From NCBI RefSeq assembly GCF_041248615.1, contig NZ_CP158426.1: 64,000 nt of DNA; one strand, written 5' to 3'. Source of the DNA: Escherichia coli. GTDB taxonomy: Bacteria > Pseudomonadota > Gammaproteobacteria > Enterobacterales > Enterobacteriaceae. Positions 49,681 to 59,203 of the stretch are shown here, in pieces; positions within the stretch are counted from its first letter, which is position 1, and every line of letters begins with the position of its first letter. A program made the translations under genes and the position numbers. The notes under the pieces were generated by a model. It had not been told where the DNA came from, did no database searches, and saw only the letters and a program-made list of their open reading frames with translations.

Positions 49681-50202
49681 TTATTCATCGATGCATTTTA
49701 TAGAATCATCAATGGCTACAATAGTACTATTAACTCTCCAATTTATATTTTTATTATCATTGCAAATATTAACTGAATCTATATCAATGATTTTTTTATT
49801 TTTATCTTTTATTTTGTTTACAGTTTCAATGCAATCAGCGACAAGTTGGTGTGGATTTAGATTCTTCAGATATGGTCTTATGATCTTTCCCTTGCTTAAT
49901 AAATAGCATGTATAGGATTCGGAAAGTCCAGCATCTATTTTGTACATCATTATTCTAGATAAGGATGTGAGAAATGCCTTGTTATCATTAGCAGCCATAT
50001 ATGCCAGTCCGAGTTCAGCCTCTGCGGCTTTACATGAAAAATAGCTAAGTGAACACGCTTTTCGTCCCTCTTGGGTACTGGCTGATATTAGTGCCCATAA
50101 TATTGCCTTGTCTGCCAAATCCAACTCTCTCTGAAATTGGTTTACAGTAACTGCATTCGCAGAAATAGAGAAGAAAAGCACAATTGTTAATAACCTTGTC
50201 AT
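49681..50202 (-). CDS. Hypothetical secreted Cys-rich protein (candidate periplasmic immunity protein of the orphan module)
   Basis: 173 aa; signal peptide MTRLLTIVLFFSISANA; seven Cys; AT-rich; starts 4 nt after the stop of the upstream small ORF. Confidence 0.5.
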   Translation of the reverse strand: MTRLLTIVLFFSISANAVTVNQFQRELDLADKAILWALISASTQEGRKACSLSYFSCKAAEAELGLAYMAANDNKAFLTSLSRIMMYKIDAGLSESYTCYLLSKGKIIRPYLKNLNPHQLVADCIETVNKIKDKNKKIIDIDSVNICNDNKNINWRVNSTIVAIDDSIKCIDE

Positions 50203-50206
50203 ATTT

Positions 50207-50482
50207 CTAGTCCGTCACTGTTAATGTGCTATCTGGCTCTGAAAATATTAGCTCATTTAATTTTTGCATGTCATTAGATGAACCAGTTATACAACCCTCG
50301 GAACAGAATCGAGGTCCTAAAGATGGACCAAAAGCGTTTAAACAACTATGTGTTAAAAATCCATCACGATTATACGTTTCTGTATTTGCTGACGGTACTA
50401 AACGTATACCATTAGGTTTTCTATTGGTTGCTCCAGGACTGTTAAGCAAGCCTCGTCCGGTTTGCTTCATTGAGTTCTCCAC
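50207..50482 (-). CDS. Hypothetical small protein (candidate orphan toxin tip)
   Basis: 91 aa; internal Met MKQTGRG (start at 50470) has GGAG SD 7 nt upstream; preceded by a vestigial rhs start ATGAGCGGAAAACCAGCGG...TAA. Confidence 0.4.
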   Translation of the reverse strand: MENSMKQTGRGLLNSPGATNRKPNGIRLVPSANTETYNRDGFLTHSCLNAFGPSLGPRFCSEGCITGSSNDMQKLNELIFSEPDSTLTVTD

Positions 50483-50570: not shown

Positions 50571-50981
50571 TCACTTAATTTTCAGTTTTTTCCAAAAGTC
50601 AATATTCCCTTCTAATAAAATTTTTTCTATGGAATCTTCATTAATTTTATTATTAGAGCATATGACATTATCTTGAACGCCATATGACACCACCCCGTTT
50701 TTATCAATATAATATCTGTCTTTACCATCAATAATATAAATCCTAACATTTTTATCATCAAAATGGTAACACTCATTACTAGACCTGTTCAGTAACATTA
50801 ATAACTTCTCACGATTTATCTGTAATAATTTTTGTGCACCATCTTTTATTGCAAAATTTTCAATTTTACTTTTAGTGACAGGGGAATATGTTTGGATGCG
50901 AAAAGGCATCCTATAATGGAAAACATCAGCTATACAGCAAGATGAAAAAAATACGGAAATAAAATACAGACATACTTTCAT
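50571..50981 (-). CDS. Candidate Rhs immunity protein
   Basis: 136 aa; AGGAG SD 5 nt upstream; 57 bp downstream of the rhs stop; AT-rich; hydrophobic N-terminus MKVCLYFISVFFSSCC. Confidence 0.55.
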   Translation of the reverse strand: MKVCLYFISVFFSSCCIADVFHYRMPFRIQTYSPVTKSKIENFAIKDGAQKLLQINREKLLMLLNRSSNECYHFDDKNVRIYIIDGKDRYYIDKNGVVSYGVQDNVICSNNKINEDSIEKILLEGNIDFWKKLKIK

Positions 50982-51038: not shown

Positions 51039-53124
51039 TTAATATTTCATTCTTGCTGGCAAGCCCAACTCTTTACGAAATGGGTTTTCATATTTATCAA
51101 CATTAGCCATCGAGTCAGTTCCATCGTCTTTCATTCCCTTTGCATGCCCCATTTCATGCGCAAGAACCACACTCAACAGAGTGGGTTTCATGGCACATGC
51201 TTTGTTTTTTCCTTGATATACACATGAGCTATGGTCGTTATCAATATCAATGTAAAAACTATATTCAGTATCATCGTAGCATGTTTGGTTTATGCCTTTT
51301 CTTAATCCTCTAAATATATATTCATGCTCTGATGACTCTAATTCTTCTGTTATTTTATGTCCAAACTTTGTTTCTGCTACAGCTTTATATGCTTCTTTTA
51401 AAGTTTTTTGTGTACTTTCATCTCCCTGAAAAGACACTTTTAACCCTAATGGATCGAAACCAGATACCGGATTCAACGGATACTGATAAAAATTCCATCC
51501 CCCCTTAAGCCCAATCGGATCCTGAGTGATATACCGCCCCTGCAGCGGGTCATAATAGCGGTGGCGGTTGTAATAGAGGCCGGACTCCTCATCATACTGC
51601 TGACCCGGCAGGCGGATGAGCTGCTGCAGCTGGTGCGGGTTCTCTTCATTCAGCAGGTTGCCCCATTCATCGTATTCTGCGCACCATTCTGTTGCCCCTT
51701 CCGTGCTGACAAGCGCCAGCGGCAGGCCGCGATGGTCGCAGTGGTACAGGTGGATTTTTCGCGCCGGCGTGTACACCGGGTCCATCTGGTTTTGTATCTG
51801 CTCCACCGTCAGGCCGCACGATGCCAGCCAGCGGCGGCTTTCCTCACTCACCCGGTCAGCCAGGATTTCACTTTCCAGCCGGTCGAGCATCTGCACCAGC
51901 ACCGGCGGGAACACCACACTGCCACCGTCTTCACCGCCGGACTGCTGAAGCGCATCCGCCAGGCTGCGGCGCTGCGTTTTCGCCAGCTCACCGGTGGCAG
52001 TTTCAACTCTGATGAGTGGCGTGAAGCTCCCCGGCTGATAAACCGTCTGGATGCGGGTTCTGTCGTTCTGTATTGTGGTCAGCCGGTCGCCGTCCCAGCC
52101 GTACCAGGTCACTTCCGGTTTCCGTGACAGCGACATCCAGCCCGTCAGGTCCCGTTCACGCCGCCACACCCGTTTTGCCACCCTGCGGCCCAGCGGGTCG
52201 TAAAGATAGCGACTTTCGACCAGCGGCTCTGCATATTGTGTCCGCGTGTAGTGCACCAGCCGGTGCCGGCTGTCGTAATGGTACCGGTGAGTCCGCTCAT
52301 CATCCGTGCGGATAACCCCTTCCGGGATGAGGTCGGTTTTCTCCGTCAGCCTGCCGTGACGGTCATACCGGTAAAGATAGTGCGCGTCACGGGCGATACG
52401 GTTATCCGGCCACATGCTGAGGGTGCTGTCCGGGTGCAGCTCCGGGTCGGGCAGGCGGTTACCTGCCGGGTCCGTGGCATACGGGATGCGGATATCCAGA
52501 TTCGCTGCGGTGGTGTGGACGCCGGTCAGCCTGCCGGTGTCGCTGTAGCTGTAACTCCGGGTCTGGCGCGGGCTGCTGATGCGGATGAGTTCGCCGTTGT
52601 CGTTCCAGGTGTAATCGCGGTCATACTGCAGGCTGTTCAGGTGCTGGCTCTGTAACTGCCCGGCAGAGGTGTAAGCGGTGGTGAGTTCATAACGGCCGAA
52701 GCTGCGCAGCGTTTCCCGGTGCAGGCGGTCGCGGGTGTACTCCACCAGCGGTGTGTCGCCGAGTTTCATGCCTGACAGCCAGCCGCTGCCGTAGGTCAGC
52801 CATTCCACGGCGGGCAGGCTGTCCGGTATACAGCGGTTCGCCAGTCCCTGCGCGTTGTACGCATGTCTGGTTTCATGCTGCCAGAGCAGTGCTTCCGTCT
52901 GCGGGTGATGCACCGTCTGGCGCTCACCGGTCAGGCGGCCTTTCTCATCATACCCGTAATGCACCGTCACCCGGTGGCCTTCGCTGAGATGGCTGATTTG
53001 TGTCAGCCAGCCGCGTTCGTCGTACCGCCACTGTTCTGCGGTTTCACCATTCACCGTTCGCTGTGTGATGCGGTCTGCTTCGTCATAGTGCCAGTGGGTG
53101 ACCAGCCCCTCATCCTCGCTGCGG
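51039..53124 (-). pseudogene. rhsA: rhs C-terminal fragment: YD-repeat core, DPxGL boundary, HExxH-containing C-terminal toxin domain
   Basis: YD repeats; ...[11 protein letters not shown]...[17 protein letters not shown]...; the ORF-track start [14 protein letters not shown] is encoded by the IS21 end. Confidence 0.85.
53119..53124. repeat. Target-site duplication CTGCGG (IS21-family insertion), copy 1
   Basis: Identical hexamer at 55706-55711 immediately outside the opposite IS end. Confidence 0.6.
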
Positions 53125-53209
53125 TGCGTATTACCGTGAAGGAGATCGGTGAGTAACATCGATGGAGATCGGTTCGTGTCACTTTCACAGAACCGTTTTT
53201 AAATTACCT

Positions 53210-53959
53210 TCACTGATCTCCTTCGGTCAACGGAGATTGTATTTTCCGCATTGATTCTCCTTTAAGTTCGATCTTGATACTGCCATGAACCAGTCGATCT
53301 AGGATGGCATCCGCATGTGTGGAGTCTCCGATCATTTTGTACCAGTTTTCCACCGGCAACTGGCTCACTACGATGATTGAGCCTCGTTGGTACATCAGAT
53401 CCACTATTTCCAGCAGGTCGCTACGCTGTTCTGATGAGAGAGGTTCCAGCCCCCAGTCATCCAGAAGCAGCAGATCGCTATTATTCAGCCTGGTCAAAAG
53501 TTTGCTGTATCTTCCATCAGCATGCCCCTGATAGCACTGTTCCATCAGCGCTTTAAGGCGATAATAGTAGACCTTGTATCCCTGTCGGCAGGCATTATGA
53601 CCAAGTGCACATGCCAGGAACGTTTTACCGCTGCCGGTGGCCCCGGTCAGTAAAATATTTTGTTTCAGGGTTAACCAGTTTCCCTGACTGAGTGAACGGA
53701 TGAGGGCCCTGTCCAGCCCTCTATTGTTACGATAATCCAGCTTTGATAACTCAGCATTAAGTCTGAACCGTGCATGTTTGATCAGACGCTCTGCCTTCCT
53801 GTTTTCACGGCAGGTTAGTTCTTCTGCTGTCAGTAATGACAGGCGTTCTTCGAAGCCCAGCTCCTGGTATGTGCCCGGCTGAGCAAGTTGCTTTTTAAGC
53901 GCATCACGGAAGCCGGTGAGTTTAAGTGCGGTCAGTTGTTCGTAAAGATGATTCATCAT
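53210..53959 (-). CDS. istB: IS21-family helper ATPase IstB
   Basis: 249 aa; Walker A GATGSGKT. Confidence 0.9.
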   Translation of the reverse strand: MMNHLYEQLTALKLTGFRDALKKQLAQPGTYQELGFEERLSLLTAEELTCRENRKAERLIKHARFRLNAELSKLDYRNNRGLDRALIRSLSQGNWLTLKQNILLTGATGSGKTFLACALGHNACRQGYKVYYYRLKALMEQCYQGHADGRYSKLLTRLNNSDLLLLDDWGLEPLSSEQRSDLLEIVDLMYQRGSIIVVSQLPVENWYKMIGDSTHADAILDRLVHGSIKIELKGESMRKIQSPLTEGDQ

Positions 53960-53970
53960 TGGATCCCGTA

Positions 53971-55512
53971 TCAGTGGTAATACTCACTGCCGCGTACGTT
54001 TTCGTGTTCCATCGTGGATAACAGATCTGGTTTTGGATCCTGAACAGGTTGTTTATCCAGACCTTTTTCCAGGATCGATTTAATACCTGACAGACGCCAT
54101 ACCTTTGTTTTCAGAGCTCTTGCACATGCTGCATTAAGTCTGGCTTTACTGTATTTTTTATGAAGGTTCAGGAGTCCAAGGCAGAAGCGATAGCTTTGTT
54201 CCGGATGTGGACGAGAGTTCAGTATATGAAGCACATAACTATGAGTTTCACTGCCTATGTGCCCCGCCCATTCCAGAAGACGCTCTGGCGTCCAGGTGGC
54301 ATGCTGTCGATGAGCTTCAGGCATGTGCTCGTTGCGGGTACTGTAGCCATAAGTACGCTTGCGCGGGTGCACAGCAACCTCCTGCCCCTGATTGAAGAGT
54401 CTTACCAGTTCTCCGGAGATCCATGCTTCCAGTTGCTGGCCTAACAGCGAACATGGAACCGAGTAGTAATGTTTGTCGATTTCCACGTGGTAATCGGCAT
54501 GAACTCTGACTTTCTTCACCAGGGTGTAACTGTAACTGGCTTCAGGAAGAGGCTTCAGTGCGGGTTTATCAAGCTGGATGAAGAGTTCTGCACGTGAATA
54601 ACCCAACTTCTGCATTATTTTGTTATTCAGTCTTTCCAGCAACTCCCGAATGCGCTGATTAAGCGATGCAAGGCTGTAGAAGATCTCATGCCTGATTCGG
54701 GCCATGATCCAGCGTTCAACAACCTGAACGCCAACTTCAGCTTTGGCTTTATCTTTCGGTTTACGTGGCCGCGCAGGCAAAACTGCGACATTATAATGCT
54801 CAAGCATCTGCTGGTAGGTAGGGTTAACGTCAGGATCATACTTACATGCCCTGGATGTGGCGCTTTTCAGATTGTCCGGAACAACAAGTTCAGGAACGCC
54901 ACCCAACCACTGGAAGCAGCGAACATGACTCATCACCCAGTCTTCAAGCTGCTGAGACCAGGTGGCCTCTGCCCATGTGTAACTTGATGCCCCGAGAACA
55001 GCTACGATGACCTGAGCAGTTCTTATTTCTCCGGTCTCAGGGTCGGTAACGCCAACGGTAGGTCCACAGTAATCAACGAAAAGTTTTTCGCCAGCTTTAT
55101 GTACCTGACGCATTGATGGTGAAGTGGTTTTGAGCCATTCACGGTACATCCGGCAGTAATGGTTATAGCTGTAAAAACCGCCTGGATTACGCTCACAGTA
55201 TTCTTCCCAGAGTAGCTGCAGCGTCACGCATTTATTACGCAGTTCCCGGTGTACTGTAGCCCAGTCAGGCAGAGAGTGCTTCTTCATCTTAACCTGGGTC
55301 TGAAGGAACGCATGTTTTAGTTTTGTATCATCCCATCCTGTAGGTAAGGGCCACTGCTTTATGCCAAGTTGAGCCGCCCGATTAGCATATCTGGATACAA
55401 CGGAAGGGGAGATTGCAAGACTACGACCAATTTGTCGATGGCTGAGTCCAACACCGTATTTAAGCCTAAGAATTTCTTTAAGTTTTCTCATAGAAATTGG
55501 AACTGTTGGCAT
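53971..55512 (-). CDS. istA: IS21-family transposase IstA
   Basis: 513 aa; N-terminal HTH and DDE integrase core. Confidence 0.9.
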   Translation of the reverse strand: MPTVPISMRKLKEILRLKYGVGLSHRQIGRSLAISPSVVSRYANRAAQLGIKQWPLPTGWDDTKLKHAFLQTQVKMKKHSLPDWATVHRELRNKCVTLQLLWEEYCERNPGGFYSYNHYCRMYREWLKTTSPSMRQVHKAGEKLFVDYCGPTVGVTDPETGEIRTAQVIVAVLGASSYTWAEATWSQQLEDWVMSHVRCFQWLGGVPELVVPDNLKSATSRACKYDPDVNPTYQQMLEHYNVAVLPARPRKPKDKAKAEVGVQVVERWIMARIRHEIFYSLASLNQRIRELLERLNNKIMQKLGYSRAELFIQLDKPALKPLPEASYSYTLVKKVRVHADYHVEIDKHYYSVPCSLLGQQLEAWISGELVRLFNQGQEVAVHPRKRTYGYSTRNEHMPEAHRQHATWTPERLLEWAGHIGSETHSYVLHILNSRPHPEQSYRFCLGLLNLHKKYSKARLNAACARALKTKVWRLSGIKSILEKGLDKQPVQDPKPDLLSTMEHENVRGSEYYH

Positions 55513-55705
55513 AGGTATCCTTTACCGGAATGGCAAAAGATACAGATCAACACACCTGTGAAGTTCCAATAACATTGATGGAGATCACTGAATAACAAAA
55601 TGAGTCAAAAGTGATCTCCATCGATGTTATTCAGCGATCTGTTCAAATGTTATTACCCGATCTCGATGGAAGTTATTGAGTGATCTCCTTTCATGAAAAT
55701 ACGCA

Positions 55706-55711
55706 CTGCGG
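55706..55711. repeat. Target-site duplication CTGCGG, copy 2
   Basis: See copy 1. Confidence 0.6.
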
Positions 55712-56723
55712 ATAAGTTTACCGGTCAGGTCGTGGTGATAACGCTGTGTGCGGCCGTCAAAGCCGGTTTCCTGTATCAGCCGGTCGAGTACATCGTAACG
55801 GAAGGTGGTGTGGCTGCCGTTTTCACTGGTCAGGCGGATGACCCGTCCGGCAGCATCGTATTCCATACTGCGCGTCAGACCGCCCTGTGTGGTACGGATG
55901 GCCTTTCCCCACGCATCGTACTGTGTCCCGTTTCTGCTGCCGTCCGGGGCAATGACGGCGGTCAGGTCACCGGCGGCGTTGTATTCATACCGCGTTTCAT
56001 GGCCCTGCGTGTCTTTCACCGCAATTAACTGTCCACGGCTGTCGTATGCGCGGTACTGACTCAGCCCTTCCTCGCGGTGCACCGCCGTCACCTGACCAAA
56101 ACGGTCATGGTCATAACGGGTTACATAACCGGAACAGTCAGTGACGGTCAGCAACTGACCGTAACGGCTCCATGTCATGGTTTTCCGGCTGCCGGTGGCA
56201 TCTTCCGTTGCGCAGGGTAAGTCACTGTGTGGATTATCATAACGGTAGCGGGTGATATCGCCGTTGTGTGCGGTTTCCTGAATCAGACGGCCGGATTCAT
56301 CATATTCCCGGCGCAATTCCAGCCCGTCAGGCCCGGTGGCTGACGTTAACTGGCTGTGGTGGTTATAGTAAAATGCCGATGCCCTGCCATCCGGTGTGGT
56401 GATGCGCGTGATGAGTCCCGTCACCACATCCGGGCTGTACTCAGTCGTCCGGCCTGCGGCATCCGTCTGTGCCTTAAGCCTGCCCACCGCGTCAAACTGA
56501 CTCTGCGTGACGCTGCCGTCCGCGTGTTCCTTTTTCACCACCCGCTTCAGCCCGCCTTCGCCCTGCGTGTGCAGCACTTCACGGCGGTCCAGGCTGTCGG
56601 TGATGGTGATGTGGTCTTTCTCATACTGATACGTGTAGCTTAAGCCTGCCGGGTTTAGCTGTTCTGTCACCCGCCCGTCACTGTCGTAACGGTAACGGAT
56701 TTCCGGCCGGCCCGTGTGACGGT
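55706..56723 (-). pseudogene. rhsA: rhs middle fragment (YD-repeat region) between the two IS elements
   Basis: YD-repeat protein segment ...RYDHDRFGQVTAV...YHHDLTGKLIRS; reading frame runs into the IS ends on both sides. Confidence 0.85.
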
Positions 56724-57478
<755 letters not shown>

Positions 57479-57582
57479 ATCAGCATACTTGTCCTTAGCC
57501 TTCTGCAGTGACAGCTGGTAGTACAGCGTGCTTCTGGCCAGCCCTGCAGCCTTTAACAGGTCAGACTGGCAGTGTCCGCACC

Positions 57583-58113
57583 TCAGGCTCCGGATGACTT
57601 TCGTTTTTTCTCCAGCTCCTGGCGCTTTTTTTCCAGGAGATGCTCCTGCATGGCTTTCAGATATGCATTTTCTGCGCGAAGATAACGCAGCTCATTCTTC
57701 ATCTCTTCCGGCGTCATGTTTGCCTCGTTTTCATGGGTATCATCAGAACGGGTCATGCTTTTCTCCTTCCTGCGCCTGATAAAGGCCTCATTACCAGATT
57801 TGCGGTAGCCTTTTATCCAGTTTTTAACCGTGTTGTGGCTGGGAATGTTAAACCGGGCAGCTACCCGGGGTAGAGACTCAGAATGCCCGAGAGCATAAAG
57901 AACCACGCAAAGTTTATCTTCAGGAGAATAGCTACGCTTGTGTCTGCAATCCAGTGCCCGAGGACCGTGAAGAAGAAAAAGATTAATCCAGTGTGAGAGG
58001 CTGGTGTGAGAAAGTTGAAAGAGTTTTGCCGTAGAAATGATGCCTGTATGACCAGCCAGGTAATGATTTACAGCGGCAAGTTTTACTTCAAATGAATGTT
58101 TCATAAACTGCAC
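57583..58113 (-). CDS. IS3-family transposase OrfA (HTH)
   Basis: 176 aa; N-terminus resembles IS150-group OrfA; leucine-zipper-like C-terminus. Confidence 0.85.
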   Translation of the reverse strand: MQFMKHSFEVKLAAVNHYLAGHTGIISTAKLFQLSHTSLSHWINLFLLHGPRALDCRHKRSYSPEDKLCVVLYALGHSESLPRVAARFNIPSHNTVKNWIKGYRKSGNEAFIRRRKEKSMTRSDDTHENEANMTPEEMKNELRYLRAENAYLKAMQEHLLEKKRQELEKKRKSSGA

Positions 58114-58155
58114 CTTCAGATGTCAGATTATGTCCAACATTTGGGGTGCAGTTCA

Positions 58156-59203
58156 GGTGCGCCACCATCCGGCCCCGGTATTTATCATCGTAAGTAAAGC
58201 TGCGCACCTGTGTATTGCTGCGGTCATACACCGCCGCCAGTTCGCCGCGTGGCGTCCAGCCATAGCGCACCAGCGGCGCGGCAGGTAAATTCTCCGGGTA
58301 TTCCGGGTCGTGCGTCAGCCACACGGCAGACAGACGGATGCCGTTGTCCCGGCCATATTCGGTGTAACCCGGCAGGGTATCAGGAAAAACGGACGGTTCC
58401 ATCCCGCCGGAAATGGCCTGCTGCCGGGCTTCTTCTGCCCGCTGCGCCTGCGTGGTCAGTACCAGCCGGAAGTGACGCCCGGCACCATCCGTCACGCCGG
58501 TGATTTCGCCGCTGAATTCGCCGCCAGCCTCACGGTGGAACGTCTGTGTGCGCCCGAAGCGGTCCACCAGCCCGGTCAGTACCCGGTACGGCGGCAGCGG
58601 CGCAGGCAGCACCTCATCCGCCTCCGGCACCCGCTCACACCAGCCGAGTACCCACCACGGCCCCTGCGGACTGTTCGTCGCCAGATAACGATGCGGACTC
58701 AGGCGAAGCTCTTCCGGCAGCGCCTGCCAGAGTGCGGCCAGCCGGTGACCTTCATCCAGTTTCGCCACGCCGCCGCGCACCAGCCAGAGTGACTCGCTGC
58801 GGCTGTAACCGTCCTCACCGGGAAACAGGTGCTCAAAATACAGGCTTCTGCCGCCGTTATCACTGAGTATCAGTGTGTTATCGCGCAGCTGTAAGCGGAT
58901 ATCCGCAGGCATTTTCCAGCCGGGGCCGAGGCTCCCCACCGGCGCGGGCGTTTTTGTCCGGTAACTGCTGTAGGTGCGGGAGAGGATGAACGGCAGCGGG
59001 CCGGGCAGGGCAAGGTCGGTTTCGCCGGGAAGGACCTTCGCGCCGAGCAGCGGATTGACCGGATGGCCGGACGTCACCCCGCCGGGGCACACCGAACAGG
59101 CCACGCCGGTGGGGGCACCGATGCGCACCCCGGCTGAACCCTGGACAATGCTACCGCCATACTGCGTCATGTCGCCCTGACGCGCCGCCGGTTTTCCGCT
59201 CAT
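58156..59203 (-). pseudogene. rhsA: rhs N-terminal fragment (PAAR-like N-terminal domain and first YD repeats)
   Basis: MSGKPAARQGDMTQYGGSIVQGSAGVRIGAPTGVACSVCPGG...; the frame reads into the IS3 end. Confidence 0.85.

Follow-up and report, generated by a model that had tools for sequence, protein, structure and literature searches.

When an insertion sequence (IS) splits a toxin gene, does the open reading frame (ORF) that runs from the IS into the toxin-encoding half mean that the half is expressed again, or is it a chance product of the insertion? The question is raised by a chimeric ORF of 706 amino acids at 51039-53159 of a 64,000-nucleotide stretch of Escherichia coli DNA (assembly GCF_041248615.1, contig NZ_CP158426.1), which is called the window below. 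This ORF, found in the ORF list of the window, begins inside the right end of an ISEc12 element and continues into the 3' part of rhsA, an Rhs toxin gene. The ORF and all features of the rhsA locus described here lie on the minus strand. The initial annotation had proposed that the IS terminal repeat supplies the start codon and that, if the IS end has outward promoter activity, a truncated Rhs protein and the immunity gene downstream of it could be expressed from the IS. Our analysis bears out the first part of this proposal and leans against the second. The chimeric ORF would be an incidental by-product of ISEc12 insertion, on a pseudogene, and not an expression device; we give this reading a probability of about 0.8.

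The ISEc12-rhsA junction and its reading frame

ISEc12 occupies 53125-55705 (2581 bp) in the same orientation as rhsA. Its two genes are consecutive and RefSeq names both as ISEc12 family: istA (53971-55512) encodes a DDE transposase with PF00665 (rve) and PF22483, and istB (53210-53959) an AAA+ helper ATPase with PF01695 (IstB_IS21). The ends have the form 5'-TG...CA-3' with multiple direct repeats at each end (left TGCGTATTTTCATG..., right ...GGTAATACGCA). The element had initially been named IS21. The family was right, and the element is ISEc12, not IS21 itself. Target duplications in the IS21 family are 4-8 bp long. Here the 6-bp sequence CCGCAG (rhsA nt 2058-2063) flanks ISEc12 on both sides, with the right copy at 53119-53124 and the left copy at 55706-55711, and it is present once in the intact rhsA of strain 746. 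The duplication is 5 bp at three other ISEc12 copies, and 5 bp has also been published for this element (PMC10711316).

The CCGCAG hexamers were also suspected to be part of the IS ends, because they are mutually near-palindromic and many BLAST matches ran 8-17 nt past the boundary. This was ruled out by the empty site together with four independent ISEc12 copies (the one here, two in rhsB and one in another rhs gene), which are all 2581 bp long and have different flanks but identical ends. The right end common to the four copies is ...CACGGTAATACGCA, so that the IS ends in ...ACGCA and CCGCAG is the duplication. A relative with 88% identity, carried by a plasmid of Serratia grimesii, parts from ISEc12 exactly at both ends. 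The three further insertions in rhs genes (L002 3879-6459, L003 3002-5582 and L004 3008-5588, from strains Iso00041, 41EC2 and 2020N21-246) comprise the two in rhsB, with duplications AGGGG and GGCCG, and the one in another rhs gene, which has the opposite orientation and the duplication CCCAG. The query that found them carried rhs flanks, and no target preference can be inferred from them.

The right end of ISEc12 contains two direct terminal repeats, R1 and R2, which extend over 53130-53181 (53130-53158 and 53153-53181). An organisation into L1/L2 and R1/R2 repeats has been described for IS21 (PMC10122671), and the repeats of ISEc12 are presumably IstA-binding repeats as well. The opening ATG of the chimeric ORF (53157-53159) is placed at the boundary of R1 and R2, 35 nt inside the IS end. 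It falls within a repeated motif, GATCTCCATCGATGTTA, copies of which are found at both ISEc12 ends, and it is kept in the Serratia relative. Since the ATG belongs to a motif of the presumed IstA sites, it would serve transposition rather than translation.

Codons 1-11 and two bases of codon 12 are derived from the IS, and the remainder of codon 12 together with codons 13 and 14 (R and S) is duplicated target sequence, so that the first 12 residues are set by the IS. Aligned with the intact RhsA of strain 746 (1380 aa), residues 13-706 correspond to residues 687-1380 apart from three substitutions. The ATG of the terminal repeat therefore shares its frame with the 3' part of rhsA, and the ORF runs from the IS end through the C-terminal half of the YD shell and the RHS core with its DPxGL motif to a toxin tip with an HExxH motif, as the initial annotation had described. 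That the product lacks the PAAR-like N-terminus is also correct. RhsA residues 1-686 of 1380 are missing, and with them about half of the YD-repeat shell. The annotation by the Prokaryotic Genome Annotation Pipeline (PGAP) treats 51039-53141 as a pseudogene without N-terminus.

How much does this continuity of frame mean? Two of the three frames that lead out of the right end of ISEc12 are open and contain a start codon within the IS (ATG 53159 and GTG 53188), and the third is closed by TAA at 53133-53131. The frame of ATG 53159 is open from a TAA at 53201, with no stop over the last 74 nt of ISEc12. An insertion in the same orientation as its target gene would therefore give an IS-initiated ORF two times out of three, and one in the frame of ATG 53159 one time out of three. 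Judged by this count, the in-frame ATG is not beyond chance. ISEc12 has also inserted twice into rhsB in the orientation of the gene, once in frame with the same ATG (Iso00041) and once out of frame (41EC2). In the explanation that we favour, rhsA has been inactivated twice, by IS1397 and by ISEc12, both in the gene's own orientation. The in-frame ORF is then the mechanical outcome of a stop-free outward frame at the ISEc12 right end and of the ATG contained in it.

The exact junction was found in one of 5,426 complete E. coli genomes, the chromosome of NRZ14408 (NZ_LT599825.1, 100%, offset 160000). The sole other match that covers more than 80% of the junction query is a different insertion, that in rhsB of 41EC2. 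In a collection of about 15 billion proteins the exact 706-aa product occurred on five contigs, all chromosome-sized; the one displayed has the order IS1397-rhs-ISEc12-rhs-immunity, and similar places were reported for the other four. The toxin tip together with the immunity gene is present at 99% identity or more in 180 genomes. Among the 25 toxin-tip genomes listed, the tip lies under an Rhs protein annotation, and the gene is intact in strain 746. This distribution indicates that the ISEc12 insertion in rhsA is recent and clonal, confined to one clone, and nothing in it indicates that selection maintains the fusion ORF.

Possible transcription and translation from the IS end

The remaining part of the initial proposal is that transcription from the IS end carries ATG 53159, yields a truncated Rhs protein (an IS-derived leader and residues 687-1380) at a meaningful level and raises expression of the immunity gene. 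We regard this as improbable, although several observations speak for it and weigh against an incidental origin of the ORF. An outward promoter-like site, TTGACC-18-TAATTT, lies at 53201-53230, where it overlaps the istB stop codon. It is 42 nt upstream of the ATG, and its predicted transcription start at about 53194 is roughly 35 nt upstream of the ATG. Its score in a home-made position weight matrix (PWM) is 11.6. Across 128 kb of strand sequence 11 such sites occur, this one included, and when the last 120 nt are shuffled the score is reached in 0.9% of cases. Both hexamers are conserved in the 88%-identical Serratia relative, although the whole IS end is conserved there too, which limits the meaning of this conservation. 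A terminator scan found no terminator-like site on the minus strand between istB and the ISEc12 end. The strong hairpin predicted at the junction of istB and the IS end (151 nt, -49 kcal/mol, z-score -2.4) is without a following U run. Some RNA probably extends across the junction, whether it comes from istAB read-through or starts at the 53230-53201 site, and transcription into the rhsA 3' fragment is plausible, if unproven. Translation starts of low efficiency are possible in E. coli without a Shine-Dalgarno sequence. The junction between ISEc12 and rhsB in Iso00041 is a second one in frame with the ATG borne by the IS. Ends of IS21-family elements are known to activate their neighbours, as ISKpn7 does with blaKPC and ISBf1 with cepA (PMC9330008), and Rhs tips and their immunity genes are known from sub-genic transcripts (PMC7043789, PMC7618764).

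Against this stand the properties of the candidate promoter and of the start codon. A standard promoter scan called nothing near the junction, and it passes over this site because the -10 hexamer TAATTT has only three matches out of six. Of the PWM sites in the window with an equal score, about half fall in ordinary coding regions, so the 53230-53201 site is a lead and not a finding. The 17 nt before ATG 53159 (CGAACCGAUCUCCAUCG) offer no Shine-Dalgarno pairing, with a free energy of +0.1 kcal/mol in the duplex calculation, from which we infer that initiation would be very inefficient. Read-through transcripts are likely anyway, and translation from ATG 53159 would be the limiting step. In read-through RNA the end of istB (GAAGGAGAUCAGUGA) is predicted to pair with codons 3-7 of the chimeric ORF.

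Two further observations concern this part of the IS. A 15-nt inverted repeat (53138-53152 and 53210-53224, 93% complementary) joins the last istB codons to the terminal repeat R1. In RNA it would form a hairpin around the ATG, and at the DNA level it adds one more copy of the GGAGATC motif, in inverted orientation. In addition, all that several E. coli plasmids have of ISEc12 is its final 99 nt (equivalent to 53125-53223), at 100% identity. These pieces are solo right-end remnants of ISEc12 which start precisely where the repeat motif has its inverted copy.

Promoters at the ends of IS21-family elements offer another route into the rhsA fragment. In IS21 the right inverted repeat holds a -35 box and the left one a -10 box. 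Together they make a strong promoter only where copies stand in tandem, and the -35 box can also form hybrid promoters with flanking DNA (PMC10122671, PMC9330008). ISEc12 shares the layout of the elements for which such promoters are described, (IS21)2, ISKpn7 and ISBf1: it has both istA and istB, several repeats at its termini, a -35-like hexamer at the right end and a -10-like hexamer at the left end. In ISEc12 the counterparts are TTCACG, 10 nt from the right end (53135-53140 in the window), and TATTTT, 4 nt from the left end. Head-to-tail ISEc12 dimers were found in two complete genomes, strain 4/1-1 (L010 3040-3160) and NZ_OZ501570.1, with the same 202-nt match in both. The dimer junction of strain 4/1-1, ...TTCACGGTAATACGCA-AC-TGCGTATTTTC..., has the 2-bp spacer AC and brings the hexamers together as TTCACG-16-TATTTT. 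This is the arrangement described for (IS21)2 and apparently not yet reported for ISEc12. Our literature search found no paper on promoter activity or transcription starts of ISEc12.

At the rhsA junction, a hybrid promoter of this type would combine TTCACG with GAGGAT in the flank across a 17-nt spacer. Transcription would start at about 53105, and translation would begin at an internal GTG and not at the ATG of the IS. The position of TTCACG fits both the tandem junction of strain 4/1-1 and the published layout of IS21 (PMC10122671, PMC9330008), and GAGGAT retains the A at position 2 and the T at position 6. We nevertheless consider such a promoter very unlikely here. Its PWM total is 4.8, compared with 11.6 for the upstream site, and GAGGAT matches at three of six positions and has no extended -10. 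This weak -10 sets the junction apart from the known end promoters of the IS21 family. Shine-Dalgarno pairing at the next in-frame starts, GTG 53054, 52970 and 52964, is poor or badly spaced. Moreover, binding of IstA is reported to occlude the promoter elements in the ends (PMC10122671). This route could not serve the chimeric ORF in any case. IS21-type end promoters start transcription beyond the IS end, and ATG 53159 sits 17 nt upstream of the -35-like hexamer, so mRNA from a hybrid promoter would not contain the ATG. Only the separate promoter-like site at 53230-53201 would place the start codon downstream of the transcription start.

Expression of an Rhs C-terminal fragment with its immunity gene, apart from the full-length gene, has precedents in the Salmonella P2 promoter and in rhsF and rhsG of enterohaemorrhagic E. 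coli (PMC7043789, PMC7618764). In those cases the internal promoter is located immediately upstream of the autoprotease motif, and a short product with the toxin alone is made, whereas the chimeric ORF starts about 1.6 kb further upstream than a P2-type site, in foreign DNA. A P2-like promoter within rhsA was looked for with the P2 sequence given in PMC7043789, at a threshold of at least 80% identity over at least 95 bp upstream of the sequence encoding PxxxxDPxGL. The match at rhsA has 70% identity over 108 bp, and the hexamers, which in P2 are TTGACG/TACAAT by our own assignment, are ATGATG/TACAAC. This candidate was rejected.

The immunity gene and the fate of a truncated Rhs protein

The presumed cognate immunity gene (50571-50981, 136 aa) follows the toxin tip and comes with a ribosome-binding site of its own, AGGAG, which precedes its ATG by 6 nt. 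Promoter-like sites are found upstream of it, in the AT-rich tip, at 51363-51335 and 51062-51034, and an identical immunity gene adjoins the intact rhsA of strain 746. Expression of the immunity gene probably relies on these signals of its own in the toxin tip and need not depend on the IS. This weighs against a role of the IS end in raising immunity, as does the distance to be covered. Rho-dependent polarity would have to be overcome along about 2.1 kb of poorly translated RNA before the immunity gene is reached.

The immunity protein has a signal-peptide-like N-terminus (MKVCLYFISVFFSSCC...) and thus looks exported, which suggests that the toxin acts in the periplasm. If so, a fragment made in the cytoplasm would exert no selection for immunity. 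Delivery of the fragment also seems doubtful. In Rhs effectors a closed cocoon encloses the toxin domain (PMC7618764), and given this architecture a half shell with the tip, which is without the PAAR-like/VgrG-loading region, could not be loaded onto the secretion system of type VI (T6SS). Together with the restriction of the junction to one clone, these points lead us to retain the explanation of the ORF as a by-product of the insertion.

A more far-reaching idea is that ISEc12 acts as a portable expression cassette, with a promoter at the istB stop codon and an ATG 42 nt further on, which re-expresses the 3' parts of the genes it breaks. If this were true, the cassette would re-express the Rhs half-shell and tip and the immunity gene here, and likewise the rhsB fusion in Iso00041, and it would keep toxin/immunity modules alive after loss of the delivery part. 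We think there is very little chance that ISEc12 works in this way.

Beyond the immunity gene lies an orphan module (49681-50482), in which a Tlde1-like C-terminal remnant (50207-50482) is followed by an Imm57 immunity gene (49681-50202). The remnant is 91 aa long with a weak match to the Tlde1 domain, and the Imm57 protein has a signal-peptide-like N-terminus. An Imm57 gene is annotated at the equivalent position beside the intact rhsA of strain 746.

Decay of rhsA and comparison with related loci

The RefSeq annotation places rhsA between yibF and yibH as three rhs pseudogene pieces parted by IS1397 and ISEc12, and PGAP calls all three pieces pseudogenes. Aligned to the window, the intact allele of strain 746 falls into three blocks. 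The 5' fragment (58156-59203, rhsA nt 1-1048) encodes the PAAR-like N-terminus and DUF6531. It is followed by IS1397, an IS3-family element of 1432 bp (56724-58155), by the middle fragment (55706-56723, nt 1046-2063) and by ISEc12. IS1397 inserted after nt 1048 with a 3-bp duplication (nt 1046-1048 are found on both of its sides) and ISEc12 after nt 2063, both in the orientation of rhsA. Since rhsA is in three pieces, native rhsA transcription must cross two IS elements to reach the chimeric ORF.

The middle piece is 98.4% identical to the allele of strain 746 (16 mismatches in 1018 nt), compared with 99.4% for the 5' piece and 99.7% for the 3' piece. A possible cause of this lower similarity is exchange with another rhs paralogue. 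AR_0067, the top BLAST hit for the empty site as reconstructed, was rejected as a reference for the ancestral gene; it is the rhsB paralogue adjoining nikR and not rhsA. The true intact rhsA, that of strain 746, was located with a toxin-tip query.

At its N-terminus the ancestral RhsA has a PAAR-like sequence (MSGKPAARQGDMTQYGG...), followed by DUF6531, RHS_repeat/YD repeats and an RHS core (PF03527). DPxGL motifs are found at residues 1221 and 1243, and the tip contains an HEMGH motif and a sub-threshold match to Peptidase_M91. The ancestral gene thus has the features of an Rhs polymorphic toxin, a T6SS effector, and the chimeric ORF, which lacks the N-terminal 686 residues, does not qualify as one. 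Elsewhere in the window and unrelated to the junction, a gene for a 1439-aa YadA-like trimeric autotransporter adhesin (36968-41287) and then a DUF3251 gene lie between lldP and yibL.

It is common for rhs loci to carry truncated cores, displaced C-terminal tips and orphan immunity genes. The present locus is another example of the IS-disrupted or orphan rhs modules of E. coli and shows no difference of substance from them. All of its components, namely an ISEc12 insertion, a decayed rhs locus and IS21-family end promoters, are of known kinds. The closest comparison is the ISEc12 insertion in tssM of E. coli sequence type 131 (ST131) clade C/H30, where a T6SS gene is likewise split at about half with a short duplication (PMC10711316). 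The tssM insertion has a 5-bp duplication and is fixed in a large clade, whereas the insertion in rhsA has a 6-bp duplication, belongs to one clone and is accompanied by IS1397.

Our study indicates that rhsA of this multidrug-resistant clinical isolate is a T6SS effector gene in decay through two IS elements, which agrees with the published ISEc12-mediated loss of T6SS in ST131. For annotation, an ORF that starts in the end of ISEc12 is to be expected for two of three frames and should not be read as a gene. About 87% of the complete E. coli genomes that were searched carry ISEc12, and a copy of near-full length is present in roughly 1,360. If the 53230-53201 site is active, ISEc12 could alter the expression of any gene that adjoins its right end, and an active outward promoter of this kind, if true, would extend a known property of the IS21 family.

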